Shown piece after piece: positions 3,001-58,570 of a DNA stretch of 64,000 bases. The notes below the pieces were generated by a model. That model saw nothing but the letters and a program-made list of their open reading frames with translations, was not told the DNA's origin and did not search any database. The position numbers and the translations under genes were made by a program. The stretch is from a virus, in the IMG/VR virus record IMGVR_UViG_3300020159_001932, positions 68,603 through 132,602 of that record. The stretch is one strand, 5' to 3'. The stretch's first letter is position 1; each line of letters opens with the position of its first letter.

Positions 3001-3955
3001 CAGTTCCTATAGGATTTTGGCCTCTTACACGAATATCACCAAATACATCTGTCATTCCGCCGCCGGGTGCAATCGTTAAATTGCTTGCAGTACTGCCTAA
3101 AAATTTAGAATATATTTTGTTTAAATATGCATCAGCCCAAGCATAGTCTTGTCCACCAATAGATCCTGTGTTATCCCCAGCAGAGTAAATATTTCCGCCA
3201 ACATTAATGTCAGCGCCAATACCAGCTCCTCCTGTTACTACTAATGCACCATTGTCAATAGAAGTAGAATTGGTGCTATCTTCTATGGCAACTGCACCGC
3301 CAATATTAACATCACCTAATACTCCAGCTCCTCCTTCAACGGTAAGTGCTCCTGTAGTTGGACTTGATGATACCTCACTGGATAATATTGCTATTCTGTC
3401 TGTTGAAATTTTTCCAGTGTAGGGGTTATATCGCAGGCCTCCAACATCTAAGTTTTCATCAAAGGGATCTGCATAAAGTTGTGCTCCTTGCAAGACCAAA
3501 CCTTCTGCATCTGTAAACAATGGATAGAATTCTTGATCTTCATTTGTTTCTAGAACAGCAATGTTTGAGGAGGTAGTAGCGGTGTTTGCCGCAGCGATTC
3601 GACCATAAATGAATCCACCTACTGCAAGATCTTTTTCAATGCCCACACCGCCATCAAAATATGCTTGTGCTAGTCTACGTTGTGCAGTAGTACTGAATAA
3701 ACTCTGATCAATTGGATATAAAGGATCGCTGCCAGAGGGATTGCTAATGTTTCCGACGTTGGCGCTGTTACTTCTTACAAGAACAACTACCCCTGTACTA
3801 CCAACAACACCAAGATTTCCAACTGCTCCAACAAAGTTAGATTGTATTAATGTAAGAGTATTAGCTTGTGTAAACCTGGTAATTCCAAGTGGGGACGATA
3901 CTGAACCGCTTTGCGGTGCAACTGCTCTTGTTCCCGATTGTCTTGTTCCAGCCAT
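1..3955 (-). CDS. Large virion structural protein (>1318 aa, truncated at the window edge) with a pectin-lyase-like beta-helix region and five CxRD repeats
   Basis: Absent from the ORF track because it has no stop in the window. ATG at 3953-3955 is preceded by AAGGA and a TAAATA box. The frame reads MAGTRQSG... and is still open at position 2 (...IILNGPDAAPELFKGP). It contains LYVTMDGNDTNDG...SPYIQNCT and repeated Y.Q.KC.RD.G motifs. Confidence 0.85.
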   Translation of the reverse strand, partial: MAGTRQSGTRAVAPQSGSVSSPLGITRFTQANTLTLIQSNFVGAVGNLGVVGSTGVVVLVRSNSANVGNISNPSGSDPLYPIDQSLFSTTAQRRLAQAYFDGGVGIEKDLAVGGFIYGRIAAANTATTSSNIAVLETNEDQEFYPLFTDAEGLVLQGAQLYADPFDENLDVGGLRYNPYTGKISTDRIAILSSEVSSSPTTGALTVEGGAGVLGDVNIGGAVAIEDSTNSTSIDNGALVVTGGAGIGADINVGGNIYSAGDNTGSIGGQDYAWADAYLNKIYSKFLGSTASNLTIAPGGGMTDVFGDIRVRGQNPIGTAPVVTNTLYVTMDGNDTNDGRAMDASRACRTIGGAMNSPYYQPGTQILVSAGRYLEDNPLVMKPYTSVRGSDIRTTFIEPINKTQDLFHVNSGCYLNYMNFLNGRSGRLEGQYTEGFNRGAYCAAFPPQTGDNRIDLFQSPYIQNCTNQSGPWLRDGTMFLPNQTVQIPLAIGLSSWGSNTASIVVNVQSGSISIGQSINAGKQTQGFFNARTLLLANKPFIQSQTVAWVDATFNSGSFSYNQIKCYRDTGLIVDAIAQDMLQDSTSDSTFAGLQYWNQGTYTGDIPNEITATIAAITFVKNSAVTLATGAGGAGQGTIVGNNFDIILGILNTGTVGVTDQVISNGLPSTNVNTVAAYNAIISNIETIKDNTINYIDSNNLVPLYSYDQAKCSRDTGLIVDAVAQDVLFGGRSQSAFAGIQYWNQDNYVGTIGSEITTTTNAINYLNSLAQKIVQNDVTGLRYQSTVTQNISLPAATSAEATTLSTDFSVITNILSSGTAGVTDIIVPNSLTASTITNVINAYNLLQANRNYLKAEVIAFVESTKTLGFVYDQEKCARDVGYMLDSISIDLLYGGNRQAVQSGVYYYGYTGNTAISGQTVQTTAAYNYLKELLYYVVQGIEVPAPFGATPQDTSSVTPGTIQEALVAQGNIDYITSIISGGPGVVEEKTPLGLAESSSENVRNAAAIIHANRAFIQSELIAYINDTFVYGYSQTKCRRDVGYILESVAYDLLHGGNLQSIKSGVYYYDNNSTSTLGSPNEIPATTAAYNFIKSIVPSIVRGDQILSPYQLSVPQVYVGYNAGTNFEIETLQHNIDTITNIIRNGPSVVGERVPINLATNTSTGVLNSYDILMANRTFIQSEVIAFLNQTLNTFNYNRQLCYRDAGILVENMAYDMAFGGNEKSIESGKAYYRGVTSVIAGQEVQTIGAIDYISYLSQLIVQNDTCPILVPPANIPVGTQVINTVLTGGEITTSSIKKLFNITTDIILNGPDAAPELFKGP

Positions 3956-4575: not shown

Positions 4576-5244
4576 TTAAACGTTGGCAATTGTAACAATT
4601 CCTGTAGCAGGACTTGTAATATTCCAACCAACACTTTGATTGTTGTTATATAAGAAACTACCGCTTGCTGTAGATTGTGTAATAATTGCACGGCGTGCTG
4701 TTAGTTTTGTAACATAGTATGTGCTACCGTTTCCGTCTGTAGCAACTAGGTTCATTTCACCAGCAGCCAATGTACTTGTGTTAACAAGTTTACATTGGCC
4801 AATACCGTCTGATGTTCTAACTAGATAACGCTTACTAGCTTCTTGTTTAACAATATCAGCAATAAGTGCGCTACCACCTGGCAAATATGCTCTTGTGTTT
4901 AAACCATTTTGAAGAGTAGTAGTCATTGTATAGGTAAATGTAGCCACTGTACCAGTTGTTCCGCCTGTAACAGTTGCAGTAGGCGTGCTTGTATAACCAC
5001 TACCACCGTCTGTTAATGTTACTGTTGCAACATTACCTAAATTATTTGTTGTTACATTACCAGTTGCAGTTTGTCCTCCTGCAATTTGTGGCGCTGTAAA
5101 TGTTAAACTAATTGTTGTACTAGTTGTATAAAGTGTACCAGTATTGTTGTTAGCAATAGTAGCAACACTTTCACCACCTACGCCTTCGCCTGTAATTGCT
5201 ACGTTTGTGTTAGCAAAAAATTTCTTTTTAATTGGACGTCCCAT
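4576..5244 (-). CDS. Thr/Gly-rich virion structural protein, possibly head decoration
   Basis: 222 aa with a GGSGYTSTPT motif, strong AAGGAG RBS and own late promoter, immediately downstream of the capsid gene. Confidence 0.6.
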   Translation of the reverse strand: MGRPIKKKFFANTNVAITGEGVGGESVATIANNNTGTLYTTSTTISLTFTAPQIAGGQTATGNVTTNNLGNVATVTLTDGGSGYTSTPTATVTGGTTGTVATFTYTMTTTLQNGLNTRAYLPGGSALIADIVKQEASKRYLVRTSDGIGQCKLVNTSTLAAGEMNLVATDGNGSTYYVTKLTARRAIITQSTASGSFLYNNNQSVGWNITSPATGIVTIANV

Positions 5245-5318
5245 TTTGTTTCTCCTTAAAATATAATGACGTTCTAGGTCTACGCAGATGGAACTGCATA
5301 ATACTTAGAATAGTATTT

Positions 5319-14948: not shown

Positions 14949-15164
14949 TTGACACTAGACATTGAAGGCATCAATGCTTTAGTTTCAGATTACGATCAAG
15001 AGTCAAAAGCCTTAAAAGATGAAATTTTTAAAATTTGTTGGTATATGAGAGGTACCCCTATTTCAGAAGGGTACTTACTTTCTTTTGAAGATAGACAGAT
15101 TATTGCAAAAATTATTGAAAAGAATTTAGAAATAACAAAAGAAAGTGGATTACCGTTCTTTTAA
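14949..15164 (+). CDS. gp51-like small hub assembly protein, possibly made only as a -1 frameshift extension of gp26
   Basis: 71-aa ORF with a TTG start and no well-spaced RBS, in the -1 frame relative to gp26 and open back through the slippery site at 14931. Confidence 0.6.
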   Translation: MTLDIEGINALVSDYDQESKALKDEIFKICWYMRGTPISEGYLLSFEDRQIIAKIIEKNLEITKESGLPFF

Positions 15165-15991
15165 ATTATCATTCCTAAAAACCGACTTTCAAATCTAACA
15201 ATCTTGCCTTCGTTAGTGCCAGTTGCCATTCTTTCATTATCAGCATCCAACTCGGCTTGAGTAGGTGCCGCCGGAGCTGCATTTGGATTACCAGGTTTGG
15301 CTTTGTTTGTTTTACTTACAGGAGCATTGGCCATTGTATTAGGTTTATTGCCGCTTAGTTGATTGGCCATATTAGCCATTGCTCCACTATCTGCTGTTCC
15401 TGCTGCTGGTGCTTGACCTGCCGGTGTCGCTGGCTGTTTTTCTGCGGTCTTTTTAGCAATTGTAGCATCAACTGTTTTCTTAACACTCTGTAAATCTCGT
15501 GTTCTTAATGCAGGAATAAGTTTGTTAATTTGTCCTACTCCAACTTTACTTGCTTGATCAGCAGCCGGTGTTGCCGGTGGCTCGCTACCAGCAGGCGCTG
15601 GTGCTCCGCCAGTTGTTGGTGCTGGTGTTGTCGTTCCACTAGCTGTCGGTGCTGCGGCTGTTGGTGCTGCGGCTGTTGGTGCTGCGCCAGACGTTGGTGC
15701 CGGTGCACCTCCGCCTATACTTGCAGGATCTGTTAATGATGGTGTACTTGCAGTTCCGCTAGGTGTAGGTGCAGGAGTAGTTGTTCCTCCGCTGGCATCC
15801 GTTGATGGAACGTCGTCACCGGCGACTGTAGCTTTTCCGGCGGCAAACCCTTTTTTCATTCTTTCCCAGGCACCAGGAATTGCTCCAGCAACTGCGCCAA
15901 CACCTTGGGCAACTGCGCCAACTCCCTTTCCAAGGAAAGAACCTACGCCTTCGTTATTTTGCTCTTCCGCAAGTAATTCATTAATCTTCAT
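15161..15991 (-). CDS. Pro/Ala/Thr-rich putative internal head protein
   Basis: 276 aa with an MKINELLAEE leader; shares the KVGVGQINK.IP.LR.RDL.SV.K.VDAT block with the neighbouring 760-aa protein. Confidence 0.6.
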   Translation of the reverse strand: MKINELLAEEQNNEGVGSFLGKGVGAVAQGVGAVAGAIPGAWERMKKGFAAGKATVAGDDVPSTDASGGTTTPAPTPSGTASTPSLTDPASIGGGAPAPTSGAAPTAAAPTAAAPTASGTTTPAPTTGGAPAPAGSEPPATPAADQASKVGVGQINKLIPALRTRDLQSVKKTVDATIAKKTAEKQPATPAGQAPAAGTADSGAMANMANQLSGNKPNTMANAPVSKTNKAKPGNPNAAPAAPTQAELDADNERMATGTNEGKIVRFESRFLGMII

Positions 15992-16014: not shown

Positions 16015-18297
16015 TTAAATTTCTTTTCCTAAAAACTTGCTGTAAAAGCCTTGATATTTACCTTCAGCAGTCGGCTGTTTTCCAGATTGCCGTTTTGACA
16101 ACGTTGCGTCGACATTTTTTTGCACACTTTTAAGATCTCTAACTCTTAGTGTCGGAATAACTTTATTAATTTGTCCTACTCCAACTTTACTTTGCTTTTC
16201 TGCTTCTGGAGTTGGTGGAGGTTCTGCTCCAGGCGGTGCAGTTGTTCCACCAGGTGTAGGTGTCTCACCAGGTGCAGGTGCAGTTGTTCCACCAGGTGCA
16301 GGTGTAGGTGTCTCACCAGGCGCTGGTAGTTTTAAATCTGCAAAGACTTTAGTTACTGTTTCTGCAGGAACTCCTGCACTTTGTAGCACTTTAGCAACTT
16401 CCTCGCTGTCTGTTGGGCTACCGGCTGCTGTCCATGCTTTGTTTAATGCATCAGCTGTAACTCCTCCTGCGGCTGCAGGAGCGGCATCTTTCTTTCCTCC
16501 CATCATTCCTTTGAGAGAATCCATAATGCCTTCTTTAACAGTAGGTTTTAAGACTAGACCGTGTACACGTTGTCCTTTTGATTCTTGCACTAACCACTTA
16601 TGTAGCGTTGCTTGCTTGTCAACATACTTAGACTCTGCAAAACTTTCTTTTAGTCCACGAGTATTTGCAGGTTTGTTTGCCCAGTATTGTTTAGCATTTT
16701 CTGCACCTTGGGCCGCATCTGCCGCTTGCTGTTGCTGTCTTGCTGTAACAGCAGCCTGTTGATCTGGAGTCATTTGGTCCCAAGACGGTGCAGGCTCAAA
16801 TGGCTTGCCAGTTAATCGGTTAATGCCAGGTGGTGTTTCACCTGGCATTCTTCCAGTTGCAGGTTCATCCATTGGCACAGCTCGCATTGGTTGTCCATTT
16901 GGTCCAATTGGTGCAATACCTGCATCAAAGTTTTTACCTATAGTAGGTTCATCCATTGGCACAGCTCGCATTGGTTGTCCATTTGGTCCAATTGGTGCGA
17001 TACTTGGATCTAATGCCCCAACTCCGGACATTCCTCCAGGTACATCTACTGGCTGGCCGCGTACTTTAATAGTTGGCTGCTCTATAGGATTGTTGCCGCC
17101 TGACATATCAGTTGCATTACCTGCACGTAGCGCATCTTTAGCAGCATTGATTTGATCAAGCGTCATTGGGCTACCGTCTGGGTTTGTGTTGGCCTTCATT
17201 GAATCCCAACCTGAGTTTCCTCGTTTAGATCCACTGTCGCCTGGTGTTAAAGGTTCTCCATCTACACCGGTTGTTGCGCCCATTGAAACAGGCCCTTTCA
17301 TATTTGCTTGATTGCTGATACCGGTTTGGCCTGTTATTGCGTGAGCCATTTCTCTGTCAACAGTGTAAGTTGATCCATCGGGTTTGGTAATTGTAACTTG
17401 TCCCCCAGGACCTTTACTAGAATCCATACTGGTAATAGTACCTTCACCGTTTGGCAATTCTTGGCCAACAGTTAAACTTGCACCAGCAAAATCGCTAGGA
17501 GTGTTTATTATCTTACTTTTTCCGTCGGTGCCAGGTGTGCTGCCGGGTGTTTGATTTGTATCATTGCTGCTGCCTGATGTCATTGCACTAACTGCTGTAG
17601 TGGCCAAGTTACCAATAACTGCGCTAGCGCCACCTAACAATGCTGGTTTAATAGCGCCCTTAAATGCCGTTTTCCAATCTTTACCTTGTAGTTTAGCACT
17701 GGCTACAGCTACAGCACCTGCAACTACTGCACCTGTAATTGCACTAGCAACTGCGCCGCCGCCGGGAATCATACTAATAATAGGACCAACCTTGCTGATC
17801 AATCCGCCAATACCTGCGCCAACTGCCGCAAGAATTAATTGTTGTGTTTCAGGTTTCTTAATACCAGATTTAACCCATTGCATTAAACTTTGTTTTGTAG
17901 AACTATCTACACCGGGTAAATTTTGAACTGCTGATGCTGCCTTTTCTTCAAATCCCTGGACTGCACCTGCATCTGGTGCAGGCAAACTTTTTTCCAAATT
18001 TGCTGCTTGATCAGCAGGTAATACTTTATCAACAACCTTTGCAAGCATTCCAGGATCTTTTGGTGCAGTACCAGCACCAGAACCTGCTGCCTGTTTAAAG
18101 ATATTTTGTATTTGATCAGGTGCTAGTGCAACTTCTGCAATATATCTTTCATATCCTCTTATAAAGCCCTCATCTAATTTCTTCCAATGAGGTTGCATTT
18201 CAGGAGTTGAATATAAATTTTCAGATAGGTATTGTTTAATGATTAACTGATCATTCTCGATAATGTCTACTCGATTCAATAAGGTTCTTAGATCCAT
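16015..18297 (-). CDS. Putative internal head / ejection protein with a hydrophobic Gly-rich segment
   Basis: 760 aa, late promoter at 18322-18329, hydrophobic LILAAVGAGIGG...VAVASA region, internal duplication. Confidence 0.6.
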   Translation of the reverse strand: MDLRTLLNRVDIIENDQLIIKQYLSENLYSTPEMQPHWKKLDEGFIRGYERYIAEVALAPDQIQNIFKQAAGSGAGTAPKDPGMLAKVVDKVLPADQAANLEKSLPAPDAGAVQGFEEKAASAVQNLPGVDSSTKQSLMQWVKSGIKKPETQQLILAAVGAGIGGLISKVGPIISMIPGGGAVASAITGAVVAGAVAVASAKLQGKDWKTAFKGAIKPALLGGASAVIGNLATTAVSAMTSGSSNDTNQTPGSTPGTDGKSKIINTPSDFAGASLTVGQELPNGEGTITSMDSSKGPGGQVTITKPDGSTYTVDREMAHAITGQTGISNQANMKGPVSMGATTGVDGEPLTPGDSGSKRGNSGWDSMKANTNPDGSPMTLDQINAAKDALRAGNATDMSGGNNPIEQPTIKVRGQPVDVPGGMSGVGALDPSIAPIGPNGQPMRAVPMDEPTIGKNFDAGIAPIGPNGQPMRAVPMDEPATGRMPGETPPGINRLTGKPFEPAPSWDQMTPDQQAAVTARQQQQAADAAQGAENAKQYWANKPANTRGLKESFAESKYVDKQATLHKWLVQESKGQRVHGLVLKPTVKEGIMDSLKGMMGGKKDAAPAAAGGVTADALNKAWTAAGSPTDSEEVAKVLQSAGVPAETVTKVFADLKLPAPGETPTPAPGGTTAPAPGETPTPGGTTAPPGAEPPPTPEAEKQSKVGVGQINKVIPTLRVRDLKSVQKNVDATLSKRQSGKQPTAEGKYQGFYSKFLGKEI
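16861..16998. repeat. Exact 54-nt direct repeat, 84 nt apart, in frame
   Basis: 16861-16914 equals 16945-16998 and encodes APIGPNGQPMRAVPMDEP twice. Confidence 0.9.
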
Positions 18298-18321
18298 GGT
18301 GTATTCCAGAAAAGTATCTGT

Positions 18322-18329
18322 TATTTATA
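18322..18329 (-). promoter_or_regulatory. T4-type late promoter TATAAATA
   Basis: Exact consensus about 25 nt upstream of the 760-aa gene. Confidence 0.75.
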
Positions 18330-18767
18330 AACGAACTGCGTTCGTTTGCTCTTTCGCTTACGCTCAGAGCATTTTTAACATCGTAGATGTTTAAATATTA
18401 TCCAGATTCTATGGTCACACTTAGCCCGTTTCCGGGCTAAAAAAATAACATTATCCGAGTTCGACAAGTCACACAGCGTTATGGCATTACAGAGGCGGTC
18501 ATCCGGTACCCCGAGCCAAGTCTTTATTATGACGGCAGCTTATGTATATACGCTATCACATACATAAACCCGCAGGTTTTCCCTGCTCTTTTTGCCTATA
18601 TCTACTCTATTCAAACAATCAAACCGCAGGCATTTTGCGATCGTGGTCCTGTAAAGGATACTGATTGAGTACTCTTGACGGCGAGAGATTTCCTTCCCAG
18701 CGATCCGAGATCCTGGTTTCTGGGCACTAGATGTTTGCCAGTGCGAGCTTTTTACCGTTTAAGGAGC
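18329..18767 (-). ncRNA. Candidate large structured non-coding RNA (alternative: replication origin)
   Basis: About 440 nt with no ORF of 60 aa or more and at least nine hairpins. GNRA loops and most G-U wobbles read correctly on the minus strand. Confidence 0.55.
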
Positions 18768-19196
18768 CTAAATTTTAGATTTTATGTGGGAGCCATGTAC
18801 ACGGACTTGTATATGTCCGTTATAATAATCATCAGATTCTAATACTTTTTGGGTAAATTGTTCTCGAGCCTCTATATAACTGCATTCAGCCTTTGATTTA
18901 CAATAAAAAAGTATTTCTCTTTTGAAATTTTCTTTGCCTAGTGATGTGATATCTGCTGTTAAGTTAGGACTGGACCCGTAATATTCCTGCCAGTCGCTGT
19001 CGATTTTGCTTCGAATCTTCTTTTTCTTTTTTGTGCCGTTCTTTAACTTTACAGTCTTGTAGGTCGTTTTACTAAATTTTGCTAACTTTTTGCCTATGTA
19101 TTTTTTATTATTGATTAAATTTGTAATGATGTAGACAAATCCTACGCAATCATCTGGTAGTTGTTTAACTTCTTCATTGTTGTATGTCCACGTCAT
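18768..19196 (-). CDS. GIY-YIG (Seg-like) endonuclease, catalytic domain only
   Basis: GFVYIITN...KKYIGKK, YYGSS, ENFKREIL, conserved Glu and YYN; only 142 aa. Confidence 0.85.
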   Translation of the reverse strand: MTWTYNNEEVKQLPDDCVGFVYIITNLINNKKYIGKKLAKFSKTTYKTVKLKNGTKKKKKIRSKIDSDWQEYYGSSPNLTADITSLGKENFKREILFYCKSKAECSYIEAREQFTQKVLESDDYYNGHIQVRVHGSHIKSKI

Positions 19197-19491
19197 TAGT
19201 TTTTTTTCTAAGATTTGTACCGAGGCCGCTAGTATTTCTATATTTTTGTTTTTTCATTTCTTTACCAAGGGCTTTTTTAATCAGTTTGTCTTCGTTGTAC
19301 GCATCTCTTACTGCTTGTTTGAGTTCTTTTTCAAGTTTGGCTATTTCTTTAATAGACTTACGAACACCTATAGACGAATCAAGACCTAAGTTTTTAACAA
19401 ATATAATATGGTAGTTATGTAAACTTACATGTGCGTCTACATATTTTGAATAAAGTTCTTTATATCGTTCTAAACTTTTATTATTCGACAT
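19174..19491 (-). CDS. Hypothetical basic protein
   Basis: ORF track 19174..19548. The likely start is the ATG at 19491, overlapping the gp46 stop. Confidence 0.55.
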   Translation of the reverse strand: MSNNKSLERYKELYSKYVDAHVSLHNYHIIFVKNLGLDSSIGVRKSIKEIAKLEKELKQAVRDAYNEDKLIKKALGKEMKKQKYRNTSGLGTNLRKKTNDVDIQQ

Positions 19492-21262
19492 AGTCTGCAT
19501 TGTTACTATAGCTGGTAAATCCGTTTTCTTTGACCACATGAAGTACACTATTCACTCGTCCCATAAGTTCATCCTTGTGAGAAATCAGGTAAATGTTTTT
19601 ATTTCTTTCGCGGGCCATCTTTTTAAGTACCGCCAGTGCGCTTTCAACTCCGGCAGAGTCCATGCCAGCATCAACAAGTTCGTCAATAAACAATAAATTA
19701 ATGCTTTGATACAGTCCTTCCCAGACATCACGGAAGGCAAAACTCATAGATAATATCAATCTATTGCGTTCTCCGCGACTTAAATTATCAAAGTCGAGGT
19801 CTTGTCCAAGTTGAGTAATTTGTACAGTAAGGTCATTTTGAAAAATAACTTGATGCGGTAGTCCTAGCTTATCAATATAATAGGTTAATCGCTTGTTTAG
19901 ATAAGTTAAATTTTGATCTATGATTTTTTTTCTTATAAAACTATCTTTATTAGTCAATAACTTGTATAAAAATTCTTGATGATCTTTTAGTTTGGTTAAT
20001 GCATTAATTTTAGTCCAGCTAATTTCTTGAATAGCGGTCTTTTTTAATTCTTCAATCTGTTCGGCATATGGATTAATTTCAACAGCCTTTGCTTCTAAAC
20101 TTTTTTCTAAACTATCTAAATTATTTTTATGTCCAAGTGCTTCGGCTTCGGTTTCGTAGAATGTTGTAGGTTTTCTAGGTAACTCGCCTATTTCTTTGAT
20201 ATCGTTGAGTATTTTATTAAGATCAGTTGTTACCTTGTCTAAATAATTATTAGATTCTTCTAAGTTTGTAATTGCAACAGCAGTCATTTCTTCATGTTTA
20301 TGGTCATGAAGTTGTTGGTCACAGGCGTGACATGTTTTATTTTCTAGACTCTCAAGATCTTTTATATATTTGTTAACAGTCTTCTGTGCTTGAATTACAG
20401 CACTCTCAAGTGTAGCCTTCTGCTTATTAAGATCCCTAAGCGTTTTATCATTGGATACCCATAGTTGTAAAGCAACATGTGCCGCTAATTCAGCAGTTAT
20501 ATCTACTGATTCAAGATTAACAATGGCTCTTCCTAGATTTTCTAATTCAGTTTGTTGTTTATTTTCCCAGGCACTACTTTTTAGTTGTAAGCTATCGATA
20601 CTTTTTTGAACATTTTCATTGGCAGTTTTGATAGCAGCAATTTTAAGTTCTTCTTCTTGGATAGAATCTTTTGTTTCTTTAATTAGACTTTTAAGTGCTT
20701 CTGCCTTTACACTTAGTATGGTAATTCCTAACAATTGCTCAATAACTTCTCGCTGTTCTGCAGCCTTCATACTAAGAAAAGGTTCAGTATAGGTATTAAG
20801 AGCAACAAGATGTTTGAACATTGTATGACTCATTTCAAGCATTTCTTCAATACTTTTTTGAGTTTCTCTGCTATCACCTTGGCTGTCATCGTCAGTTTCT
20901 TCGGTCTTTAATGGGTTATCATTAATAAAAAGTTTAAGTACATTAGGCTTACGACCCCTTTCTATGCGATATTTGTTCCCACCCTTTTCAAATTCAACGG
21001 TTACAAGCATACCCTTGCCGTTAATTTTATTGATTAGATTTTCTTTGCGTATGTTAGTCAGAGCTTGGCCATATAAAGCATAACTCAATGCATTGATCAT
21101 TGTAGTTTTTCCGGTGCCATTGCGACTTCCGGTGTCGTCGCCACCAAGGTCGTGGTTAGATCCAAGAACAAGTGTTAGATGTTCTTTATCAAACCCTACA
21201 GCTTGAGTCTGTGCGCCCACACTCATAAAGTTTTTTACGGTGATATTTTTTAATTTAAACAT
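19481..21262 (-). CDS. gp46: Recombination endonuclease ATPase subunit (gp46 / SbcC / Rad50-like)
   Basis: NFMSVG, Walker A NGTGKTT, CHAC zinc hook, signature LSRGERNR, Walker B LLFIDE, ISH. Confidence 0.95.
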   Translation of the reverse strand: MFKLKNITVKNFMSVGAQTQAVGFDKEHLTLVLGSNHDLGGDDTGSRNGTGKTTMINALSYALYGQALTNIRKENLINKINGKGMLVTVEFEKGGNKYRIERGRKPNVLKLFINDNPLKTEETDDDSQGDSRETQKSIEEMLEMSHTMFKHLVALNTYTEPFLSMKAAEQREVIEQLLGITILSVKAEALKSLIKETKDSIQEEELKIAAIKTANENVQKSIDSLQLKSSAWENKQQTELENLGRAIVNLESVDITAELAAHVALQLWVSNDKTLRDLNKQKATLESAVIQAQKTVNKYIKDLESLENKTCHACDQQLHDHKHEEMTAVAITNLEESNNYLDKVTTDLNKILNDIKEIGELPRKPTTFYETEAEALGHKNNLDSLEKSLEAKAVEINPYAEQIEELKKTAIQEISWTKINALTKLKDHQEFLYKLLTNKDSFIRKKIIDQNLTYLNKRLTYYIDKLGLPHQVIFQNDLTVQITQLGQDLDFDNLSRGERNRLILSMSFAFRDVWEGLYQSINLLFIDELVDAGMDSAGVESALAVLKKMARERNKNIYLISHKDELMGRVNSVLHVVKENGFTSYSNNADYVE

Positions 21263-58132: not shown

Positions 58133-58569
58133 TAAAAAATCTCAGTTTTACCATCATCACGTAATGCACGATTAACATAACCGGCACCTCTTCTGGACAT
58201 ATCAACACCTTCTTCTCCACCGACATTTCGGCAAAGTTCCATAAACCATTGGTCGACAATTGCTTCATCAGTGTCGCCGGTATATCCTTCTGCTCTTAAT
58301 TGTAATACAAAATATTCGTTCCAGTCAAGTTCAAAAAACCCATTGCGTATATTATCTTTATTAACATGAGTATCCAAAACTGCTACCCAGGGTTCTCTTT
58401 TTTCAGTTGCTAGTTCTTTTGGTGTAAGGCCCGCAATTCTTTTTTCTTCAGCAATACGTTTAGATTCTTCTGCGGCTGCTTCGGCAATTGCTTTAATGCG
58501 TTCCTCTTCCTCGGCAGTTCTTACATATGGCTCTTTAATGCCAAATAACTTTTTAATAAGCTGTTTCAT
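58132..58569 (-). CDS. Hypothetical protein
   Basis: ORF track 58132..58632. Likely start is MKQLIK at 58569, just after the queE stop. Confidence 0.65.
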   Translation of the reverse strand: MKQLIKKLFGIKEPYVRTAEEEERIKAIAEAAAEESKRIAEEKRIAGLTPKELATEKREPWVAVLDTHVNKDNIRNGFFELDWNEYFVLQLRAEGYTGDTDEAIVDQWFMELCRNVGGEEGVDMSRRGAGYVNRALRDDGKTEIF

Positions 58570-58570
58570 A

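Follow-up and report, generated by a model that had tools for sequence, protein, structure and literature searches.

A large structured RNA containing the Polynucleobacter-1 motif and two matching boxes, beside a GIY-YIG nuclease gene of a T4-like phage

What is encoded by a 470-nt gap that holds no open reading frame (ORF) and directly follows the gene of a small GIY-YIG nuclease, and does the answer have anything to do with the nuclease? The gap lies in a 64,000-nt stretch of viral DNA (positions 68,603 to 132,602 of IMG/VR record IMGVR_UViG_3300020159_001932, hereafter the window), which belongs to a 132.6-kb viral record (~132 kb in the searches). A sequence-only reading had proposed that a structured RNA from this gap is a scaffold or guide for the nuclease. 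The comparisons described here indicate that the gap encodes a genuine large structured noncoding RNA (ncRNA) of ~435 nt (about 18329-18762, minus strand), whose 5' third is the Polynucleobacter-1 motif (Rfam RF01718). On balance, and with confidence only slightly better than even, we favour the explanation that it is an autonomous ncRNA, the full-length form of Polynucleobacter-1, whose two identical single-stranded boxes would be read in trans.

The RNA in the gap

In a crude tiling of ORFs, no other ORF-free stretch of the window is as long as the gap (18298-18767), in line with the sequence-only reading. The GC content of the gap is 43.4% compared with 37.8% for the window. Folding of the minus strand gave -140.7 kcal/mol (z -3.88), which none of 100 shuffled sequences equaled, whereas for the plus strand z was -1.66 and 4 of 100 shuffles did as well. 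The RNA begins no more than ~10 nt from the stop codon of the nuclease gene and on the same strand, in agreement with the position first proposed. A search of viral DNA with the 142-aa nuclease retrieved at least 563 stretches, from which 80 GIY-YIG-anchored loci were kept, and blastn matched the gap in 59 of these 80 loci at 67-80% identity, many matches spanning most of its length. In a MAFFT alignment of 40 related gaps (A1), which was fitted to no structure, conservation runs from a few bases past the stop codon to the hairpin ending at 18329. No match to the gap was found by blastn among 50,697 cultured-phage records, and the RNA is present in a single copy in the source record and in four of the five other phage records searched.

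Fourteen helices and three pseudoknots were drawn from the window sequence and from mutual information among 155 unique copies; a fourth pseudoknot was added later. Pairing in A1 amounts to 80.7% of cells compared with 68.2% after shuffling (0 of 500 shuffles reached the observed value), and sliding the partners by 1-3 columns left 36-43% of cells paired. Covariation in relatives, a check that had been set beforehand, is present, with 518 cells changed on both sides compared with 180.5 in shuffles. All nine stems that had been picked out from the single sequence lie at their given coordinates and are upheld by compensatory changes in the related phage contigs of A1. The stem CAAUCA/UGAUUG, which had been suggested to close a multibranch, is formed in 94.6% of cells, and 4 of its 6 pairs show double changes. 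The UGCCU/AGGCA pseudoknot proposed with it fared less well, since all five pairs show some double changes but only 61.5% of cells pair. An RNA on the gene strand, which had been argued from G-U pairs, is favoured by columns 148/187 (GU in 38 of 40 sequences) and 486/509 (UG in 34 of 40). On this comparative evidence, the RNA is a compact body of 14 helices and 4 pseudoknots, made up as follows (5' to 3' along the RNA).

about 18329-18762, minus strand: full-length ncRNA, ~435 nt (blastn, A1, pair counts and mutual information on 155 copies; ends approximate)
18755-18758, minus strand: 5' strand (ACGG) of pseudoknot PK0, pairing with the P3 loop CCGU at 18678-18681
18613-18749, minus strand: 5' domain, RF01718 (cmscan 106.1 bits; A1 helices)
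18724-18744, minus strand: helix P1, double changes in 7 of 7 pairs
18698-18715, minus strand: helix P2, double changes in 4 of 7 pairs
18672-18687, minus strand: helix P3, double changes in 2 of 4 pairs
18662-18667/18616-18621, minus strand: helix P4, double changes in 4 of 6 pairs
18647-18658, minus strand: helix P5
18622-18642, minus strand: helix P6
18593-18597, minus strand: 3' strand (AGGCA) of pseudoknot PK1, pairing with the P6 loop UGCCU at 18628-18632; moderate support
18572-18586, minus strand: helix P7 (A1 helices)
18537-18570, minus strand: P8, a long hairpin, 91% of cells paired, double changes in 11 of 12 pairs
18482-18533, minus strand: core knot, with PK2 threaded through P9 and P10, holding the near-invariant GGUACCGGAUGACCGCC
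18529-18533 with 18498-18502, minus strand: pseudoknot PK2 (GUCAU with AUGAC), 96.0% paired, double changes in 3 of 5 pairs
18515-18518/18482-18485, minus strand: helix P9, 93.0% paired, double changes in 3 of 4 pairs
18509-18512/18492-18495, minus strand: helix P10
18475-18478, minus strand: 3' strand (CGCU) of pseudoknot PK3, pairing with the P8 loop AGCG at 18551-18554
18450-18460, minus strand: box 1, ACUC + GGAUAAU (7-nt box 18450-18456), preceded by GUGUGAC-N7
18420-18441, minus strand: P11, the hairpin between the boxes, UUUAGCCCG-GAAA-CGGGCUAAG (mutual-information pairs q330/q345 and q334/q341)
18397-18407, minus strand: box 2, AUCU + GGAUAAU (7-nt box 18397-18403), preceded by GUGUGAC-N6
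18329-18391, minus strand: 3' tail of P12, P13 and P14 (mutual information of q422-427 with q433-438, up to 1.11 bits)
18377-18391, minus strand: helix P12
18348-18370, minus strand: P13, with the conserved UGAGC-GNRA-GCGAAA motif
18329-18347, minus strand: P14, the terminal hairpin

The helices of the 5' domain are paired in 77-95% of A1 cells. PK0, which lies outside the Rfam model, ties the leader just past the stop codon into the fold. Only 49% of its cells pair in A1, where the 5' ends are ragged; among the 155 copies, the column pair q10/q90 is AU in 67, GC in 31, UA in 20 and GU in 14, and complementarity of at least 5 bp between leader and P3 loop occurs in 104 of 155, compared with 27% when loops were swapped between sequences. 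PK3 pairs in 96.3% of cells (slid controls 5.6-56%), has 27 double-change cells compared with 6.7 in shuffles, and shows mutual information of 1.13 bits (q292/q215). In addition, q243 (about 18525) changes in step with q345 (AA in 64 copies, GG in 40, UU in 20), and both are complementary to q330, the partner of q345 in P11 (18438/18423). Such a pattern would fit a base triple; it would also fit a fold in which AAAG at q243-246 pairs instead with the 5' strand of P11.

A match to a family already described had been named as a result that would refute the first proposal, and this applies to the 5' third only, the rest of the RNA being uncatalogued. The RF01718 match at 18613-18749 (minus strand) covers model positions 1-141 of 141 with 106.1 bits (E 5.7e-22) and thus lies well above the gathering score of 37 bits, and the consensus helices are upheld by compensatory change. 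In the rest of the gap, no other Rfam family at E up to 10 counted as a match (best E 0.85). The motif was found by Weinberg et al. (2010, Genome Biol 11:R31, PMC2864571), whose table marks it as probably cis-regulatory ('y' under cis-reg). In our literature search, the Polynucleobacter-1 motif was named only in that discovery paper, and a search on GIY-YIG nucleases, structured RNA, T4-like phages and fresh water returned no title concerning this RNA. The family shares its helices, conserved loops and habitat (Burkholderiales, fresh water) with the 5' third described here, but its model covers only about one-third of the conserved RNA, the full RNA being about three times longer, and has no counterpart of the leader pseudoknot, the long hairpin, the GGUACCGG..ACCGCC knot, the twin boxes or the UGAGC..GCGAAA hairpin. 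Moreover, most copies found here lie in T4-like phage contigs rather than in bacteria. The place before one conserved gene that is expected of a cis-regulatory motif was not observed, as ~300 nt more of structured RNA follow the RF01718 motif.

A complete 346-kb phage record (G305, 3430-3900, locus L048) has no RF01718 match and a different 5' domain, and it keeps the GGUACCGG..ACCGCC knot, the twin boxes (AGAUAAU twice) and the UGAGC..GCGAAA hairpin. Since the RF01718 domain is absent and the core is present in this record, the catalogued motif appears to be a replaceable part. Judged from the aligned copies, the best-conserved part is the 3' core, and the catalogued 5' domain is replaced in some jumbo phages. 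One further sequence of A1, L072, resembles the L048 variant.

The twin boxes

The 7-nt word GGAUAAU occurs twice in the RNA, at 18450-18456 and, 53 nt past it, at 18397-18403. Ahead of each box stand GUGUGAC, a spacer of 6-7 variable bases, an A and then three pyrimidines (CUC before box 1, UCU before box 2); the direct repeat amounts to 7 (+3) bp. Across the 155 copies the word varies (e.g., AGAUAAU, GGAUGAU, AGAUGAA and GCAUAAU) and both boxes agree. Position 1 (q312/q365) is AA in 79 copies, GG in 75 and mixed in one; position 2 (q313/q366) is GG in 142, CC in 8 and AA in 5; position 5 (q316/q369) is AA in 96, GG in 59 and never mixed; and position 7 (q318/q371) is identical in 149 of 154. 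Mutual information between the boxes at the four variable positions is 0.95/1.00 bit, 0.96/0.96, 0.50/0.50 and 0.64/0.80, and no other column exceeds 0.3 bit with a box position. The information that position 1 has in common with any further column does not exceed 0.1 bit, so this position flips often and independently of descent. An exact second copy lies 47-63 nt downstream in 157 of 164 unique copies. As far as these copies can tell, the word differs between close relatives while the two boxes stay identical. In the bacterial islands described below, the words are AUCAAAA, AGCGAAA, AGAGAAA and AACAAAA, and the two boxes are identical in 8 of the 12 islands.

No covarying complement of the boxes, even allowing wobble pairs, was found inside the RNA. 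The stretch AUUGUUU (q149-155) was rejected as a partner: it fits the commonest boxes (45 compared with 20 in controls) and does not vary with them, and its fit probably reflects the promiscuity of a U/G-rich sequence. AGCGAAA occurs at two further places of the RNA in three islands; these were rejected as well, because the places keep AGCGAAA when the boxes differ. Near the RNA in phage loci, third copies of the box or its reverse complement are scattered only and have no fixed place, the bins at -1400 and +300 holding 4-5 hits (0.3-0.7 expected), too few to use. Likewise, no extra fixed box site was found in the 20-kb island regions.

The nuclease and the other carriers of the RNA

The 142-aa protein matches PF19835 (SegE_GIY-YIG) over residues 3-129 (E 4e-33, 114.7 bits, cut-off 25) and phrog_447 (3.4e-37). 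Ten residues are invariant in 62 relatives (F20, Y22, I24, Y33, G35, K37, Y72, S75, E109 and N126), and R93 is kept in at least 90%. These include all of Y22, Y33, G35, E109 and N126, which we take to be the GIY-YIG motif set (Tyr of GIY, Tyr-x-Gly of YIG, the catalytic Glu and Asn) and the presumable counterparts of I-TevI residues. The AlphaFold2 (AF2) model is a single domain (pLDDT 96.2) with a long basic beta-hairpin inserted at about residues 40-66. The best meaningful Foldseek match is the catalytic domain of I-TevI (1ln0_B/1mk0, probability 0.95-0.97, TM(target) 0.67, with a weak E of 0.14-0.20), and a PDB sequence search with the protein gave no match. Homing endonucleases of the Seg/I-TevI type normally carry a C-terminal DNA-binding region. 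Its absence here, noted in the sequence-only reading, is confirmed by Pfam and AF2, which give 142 aa in one domain only. By PF19835, a family with the name of SegE, the catalytic domain is that of the T4 Seg proteins and of I-TevI, the latter being also the best fold match, though weak in E-value. Linker and DNA-binding domain are lacking, the basic beta-hairpin is inserted, and the family appears to be conserved across Kyanoviridae-type phages rather than sporadic.

The lone catalytic domain is the normal form of a large family, with 2285 cluster representatives of mostly 130-170 aa in a full HMMER scan. By tblastn, the family was found in 494 cultured-phage records, all at less than 60% identity, including cyanophages, Methylophilales phage Melnitz and Sinorhizobium phages. 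In the two loci inspected, those of Melnitz and Synechococcus phage ACG-2014d, the gene stands among nucleotide-metabolism genes, the gaps behind it are 148 and 47 nt, and there is no RF01718 match and no large gap. Labels in GenBank conflict (e.g., NC_026923.1, 153078-153518), as some records and phrog_447 have "NAD synthetase" and others a homing or GIY-YIG endonuclease; given the Pfam and fold results, the former is probably wrong. We infer that this stand-alone nuclease is conserved in Kyanoviridae-type phages and that, in this lineage, its gene occupies a constant place beside that of the RNA.

Three phage loci (L124, 3963-4484; L129, 2614-3126; L146, 265-771; coordinates in the orientation that puts the RNA on the plus strand) have an ORF for a PD-(D/E)xK protein of 168-173 aa between gp46 and the RNA. 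The L124 protein matches PF24608 (PDDEXK_15, 6.9e-28) and, as a tblastn query, retrieved those of L129 and L146. This replacement suggests that the GIY-YIG protein may be a structure-specific nuclease working with gp46/gp47. In about a dozen other loci, an ORF of 335-385 aa overlaps the GIY-YIG stop codon by 4 nt (e.g., L034, 3426-4451; L035, 2830-3894; L054, 2353-3504; L063, 3420-4538), and in L034 the RNA match lies directly behind it. The inserted ORF has no Pfam family above threshold, only weak sub-threshold hits to Tetraspanin/DUF2157, and may encode a membrane protein.

Outside phages, RF01718 scored above threshold in 17 of 151 sampled genomes of the genus Polynucleobacter, often on large single contigs, and in 4 of 151 sampled from the order of Polynucleobacter sp. 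G001, this genome included. All 12 island regions analyzed (20 kb each, L233-L244; 11 from contigs of 1.8-2.2 Mb) share a conserved module, in the order of a divergent DUF6641 gene, the RNA, a variable ORF, a tyrosine recombinase of 188-198 aa, two unknown genes, an ATPase and an integrase. The small recombinase consists of the catalytic domain only (PF00589, residues 16-186 of 198), the ATPase is clamp-loader-like and present in 11 of 12 (phrog_168 3.1e-21, PF00004 5e-10), and the integrase is full-length (424 aa). The variable ORF between RNA and small recombinase changes from one genome to the next and can be on either strand. Some genomes have two island copies (G115, ~18 kb apart, and G024). 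The full architecture recurs in the island RNAs, whose twin boxes use other words, and no GIY-YIG gene was found in the islands. Conversely, tblastn with island proteins gave no match in the 132-kb record and 160 phage loci, and neither DUF6641 nor PF00589 was found in five RNA-bearing jumbo-phage records (three at least 99% complete), although the DUF6641 search was weak, its controls being silent too. Phages and islands thus have no protein neighbor of the RNA in common. No literature on DUF6641 was found.

A search of bacterial genomes for the core pattern gave 14 hits (L202-L215), all on contigs of metagenome-assembled genomes (MAGs) or uncultured bins from unrelated groups, with assignments that include Methylococcales, Flavobacteriales, Haliscomenobacter and Bifidobacterium. 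Of 12 contigs tested by tblastn, five have GIY-YIG (three of them also gp46) and two have island genes. The GIY-YIG-bearing contigs are probably phage DNA mis-binned into bacterial MAGs.

The proposal that the RNA is a guide or scaffold for the nuclease is not supported by these comparisons: the RNA occurs without GIY-YIG in the islands, the GIY-YIG family occurs without the RNA, no GIY-YIG column covaries with the boxes beyond permutation or the gp46 control, and RNA divergence follows gp46 better. In a permutation test, GIY-YIG columns reach 0.11-0.20 bit with the box positions, compared with a 95% null of 0.14-0.19, whereas the gp46 control, which reflects descent only, gives 0.26-0.45 bit. 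Over 90 loci, the divergence of the RNA correlates with that of gp46 (rho 0.48), and its correlation with GIY-YIG (rho 0.23) is the weakest of the three; GIY-YIG itself is only weakly tied to gp46 (rho 0.26), which could mean exchange or saturation. The nuclease looks like a regular neighbor and not the RNA's dedicated partner, and we infer that the 142-aa protein is not an RNA-dependent enzyme.

All genes around the locus are on the minus strand, and the RNA is on the strand of both of its phage neighbors.

21262-22275, minus strand: gp47-like, metallophosphatase-type protein
19481-21262, minus strand: gp46-like, SMC/AAA_23 protein
between the gp46-like gene and the GIY-YIG gene, minus strand: 105-aa ORF (orf105)
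18768-19196, minus strand: 142-aa ORF, stand-alone GIY-YIG nuclease gene (PF19835, phrog_447)
18298-18767: ORF-free gap, 470 nt, largest in the window by crude ORF tiling
18322-18329, minus strand: TATAAATA, between the RNA and the next gene (start codon 18297)
16015-18297, minus strand: 760-aa low-complexity protein (orf760), start codon at 18297
15161-15991, minus strand: 276-aa low-complexity protein (orf276)

The Gly/Ala/Pro/Thr-rich proteins orf760 and orf276 have no Pfam, PHROG or NCBIfam match. Their N-termini are alike, they have a common C-terminal block (...SKVGVGQINK.IP.LR.RDL.SV.K.VDAT...), and N-terminal relatives lie downstream of the RNA in some other phage loci. The word TATAAATA presumably resembles, weakly, a T4-type late promoter, and an ATAAATA-like word recurs at its position in A1. 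It occurs 3 times in the window compared with 8.6 expected by chance, and with a word that is not enriched, a late promoter is a guess. A sigma-70 scan gave one 9/12 site, ending at 18772, such sites being no commoner than in shuffles, and the terminal hairpin P14 failed a simple terminator scan. Elsewhere in the window, the second-largest "gap" of the tiling (58133-58570, minus strand) is unstructured (z +0.33) and is probably a gene missed by the tiling, with an AUG near the 5' end of the folded sequence and an open frame. A match to the freshwater-2 RNA (RF02980) at 5242-5316 (minus strand; 52.5 bits, gathering score 49.9) ends in AAGGAGAAA..AUG and thus has a leader position directly before a start codon. 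A tRNA scan of the window found none.

What the RNA may do

In the explanation that we favour, a nucleic acid acting in trans would base-pair with the boxes, each of which would offer an equivalent docking site for the same sequence. This is suggested by four properties: any word seems allowed as long as the two match, the boxes are unpaired, no complement exists in cis, and no protein is common to all carriers. Docking would hold two copies of the partner together or bind one partner at two sites. In phages, the RNA would be the last product of the early block of gp47, gp46 and nuclease genes.

Several results weigh against this explanation. No trans partner of the boxes was found in the loci or in the 132-kb record, in which the box word is not enriched (9 + 11 copies, within the range of other box words) and the sole 10-mer complement of the box lies within a coding gene; moreover, the MAFFT alignment may conceal partners in badly aligned linkers. 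The sole evidence from RNA libraries is one 158-nt contig (X15) that covers 18465-18619 at 97% identity (4 differences), and the same library yielded contigs of the flanking genes and may include DNA. Neighborhoods point to a tie with enzymes. A search for the RNA core with a degenerate pattern retrieved at least 120 viral stretches and 80 loci, 69 of them with enough upstream DNA to judge; the GIY-YIG gene is directly upstream in 59 of the 69 and within 2 kb, with an ORF between, in 5 more, while in 3 a PD-(D/E)xK nuclease fills the GIY-YIG slot. In the islands, a tyrosine recombinase consisting of the catalytic domain only is always within 2 kb of the RNA. This adjacency could mean a functional tie beyond the sight of our tests, and the variable part of a guide RNA need not covary with its protein. 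Two further libraries (X18 and X19) are probably DNA, and the searches, made on assembled contigs (Logan) only, gave nothing firm on transcription. No contig joint skips from box 1 to box 2, the joints listed coming from one contig each at 80% likeness.

These neighborhoods are the main argument for a nuclease-RNA system, in which the RNA would scaffold or target small DNA enzymes and the boxes would pair with two DNA sites of the same sequence. In addition to the 59 of 69 adjacent GIY-YIG genes (with the 5 within 2 kb) and the three loci with the unrelated single-domain nuclease PF24608 in the same slot, all 12 islands have the small tyrosine recombinase 0.85-1.8 kb downstream on the strand of the RNA, and the pairing of RNA and small recombinase recurs in other Burkholderiales and in MAG contigs. 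The overlap regions of tyrosine recombinases must match for strand exchange, and identity of the boxes whatever the word is what two-site strand exchange would demand. We nevertheless think such a system unlikely. Each of the three unrelated enzyme folds would require a separate surface for binding the RNA, the GIY-YIG family is found widely where the RNA is missing, and another ORF parts enzyme from RNA in 5 phage loci and most islands. Two of the 69 loci have neither nuclease; one of them is simply too short, but L101 does lack both. Box words or complements have no fixed place in the 20-kb islands or phage flanks, no GIY-YIG column covaries with the boxes, and the divergence of GIY-YIG is the one most weakly correlated with that of the RNA. 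The fast-changing 7-nt word is internal and doubled, its targets were not found in flanks, 20-kb islands or the 132-kb record, and 7 nt are too few for a genome-wide search. A bolder form of the idea, which we regard as a long shot, is that the twin-box RNA might be a programmable docking scaffold for small DNA-cutting or DNA-joining enzymes that lack a DNA-binding domain (GIY-YIG, PD-(D/E)xK and the island tyrosine recombinase), the boxes pairing with two DNAs or RNAs of the same short sequence. If true, this would be RNA-directed recombination or cleavage unrelated to CRISPR, omega-RNA systems and bridge RNAs.

The position of the RNA at the end of the gp47-gp46 block, together with the clamp-loader-like AAA ATPase of the islands, would also suit an element that starts replication or recombination, the RNA serving as R-loop or primer on template DNA gripped by the boxes. 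We consider this quite unlikely, as an ordinary R-loop needs neither twin identical boxes nor four pseudoknots, and no sign of an origin appeared in the composition table, no test having been aimed at skew or a DNA unwinding element. A cis-acting leader or 3' untranslated region (a riboswitch-like element or attenuator for the next gene, or a stabilizer of the upstream mRNA) would agree with the cis-regulatory mark in the 2010 table, with the strand shared by RNA and both phage neighbors, and with the co-change of q243 and q345, which are both complementary to q330 and could mark alternative pairings. It is made distinctly improbable by the next island ORF, which is opposite to the RNA in 6 of 12 regions, by the varying family of the downstream phage gene (orf760/orf276-like matches are found in a minority of loci), and by a size of 435 nt with four pseudoknots, far beyond known leaders. 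Least probable of all, in our judgment, is a DNA-level element with the RNA secondary, in which the boxes would be direct-repeat binding or recombination sites (iteron- or att-core-like). The boxes are indeed direct repeats kept identical whatever the word, and tyrosine recombinases lie near the RNA in islands, but the spacing varies between 47 and 63 bp, sites ~53 bp apart presumably could not synapse in cis, no tyrosine recombinase was found in the five phage records (three at least 99% complete), and strand-specific G-U pairing and compensatory changes in the flanks are typical of RNA. Two other candidates were rejected. A group I intron with the GIY-YIG gene was discarded because no intron family matched the gap at E up to 10 and gp46, orf105 and orf760 are complete ORFs, and the VIPR guide RNAs, described in a preprint (bioRxiv 10.64898/2026.04.26.720920) as having GGY/NN repeats, are unrelated.

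The autonomous twin-box RNA can be compared with several known systems. The omega-RNAs of HEARO/IscB and of TnpB are large structured RNAs beside compact nuclease genes in mobile elements, and the HEARO-type orphan RNA, found by comparative genomics, proved to be a guide scaffold. The likeness lies in a large structured RNA and an adjoining compact nuclease gene, but IscB and TnpB always occur together with their RNA, which has the guide at one end, whereas in the present case RNA and protein are also found separately, the enzyme is of the GIY-YIG type, and what varies is a 7-nt word inside the RNA, present in two copies. The IS110 bridge RNA has two loops specific for different DNAs and an adjacent DEDD/serine recombinase. 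Both are single RNAs with two recognition modules that must agree at some positions; here, however, the boxes are identical, the RNA exceeds the bridge RNA 2-3-fold in size, searches for target or donor sites found none, and the neighbors are GIY-YIG nucleases, PD-(D/E)xK nucleases or tyrosine recombinases, with no DEDD/serine recombinase. GOLLD and ROOL are large multi-pseudoknotted RNAs of phages and prophages. They resemble the present RNA in being phage-carried, multi-pseudoknotted and common to bacterial mobile elements, but there is no sequence or Rfam match to them, and the RNA here is smaller, not beside tRNA genes and equipped with twin boxes. To our knowledge, bacterial or phage RNAs this large and knotted number a handful, and nearly all explained ones are ribozymes or guide scaffolds.

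For annotation, these results mean that the gap is an RNA gene and that "NAD synthetase", as some GenBank phage records name this protein family, is probably a wrong label for a stand-alone GIY-YIG nuclease. The motif catalogued in 2010 appears to be only the front part, and a replaceable one, of an RNA that is far larger. Uncultured freshwater T4-like phages commonly carry this RNA (its core is in at least 120 viral stretches, and the nuclease gene in at least 563). The same RNA is common to these phages and to integrative islands of an abundant lake bacterium, and the island-bearing Polynucleobacter genomes are large, apparently complete chromosomes. Its boxes may hold nearly any word but must match, a testable constraint that points to a reader in trans.

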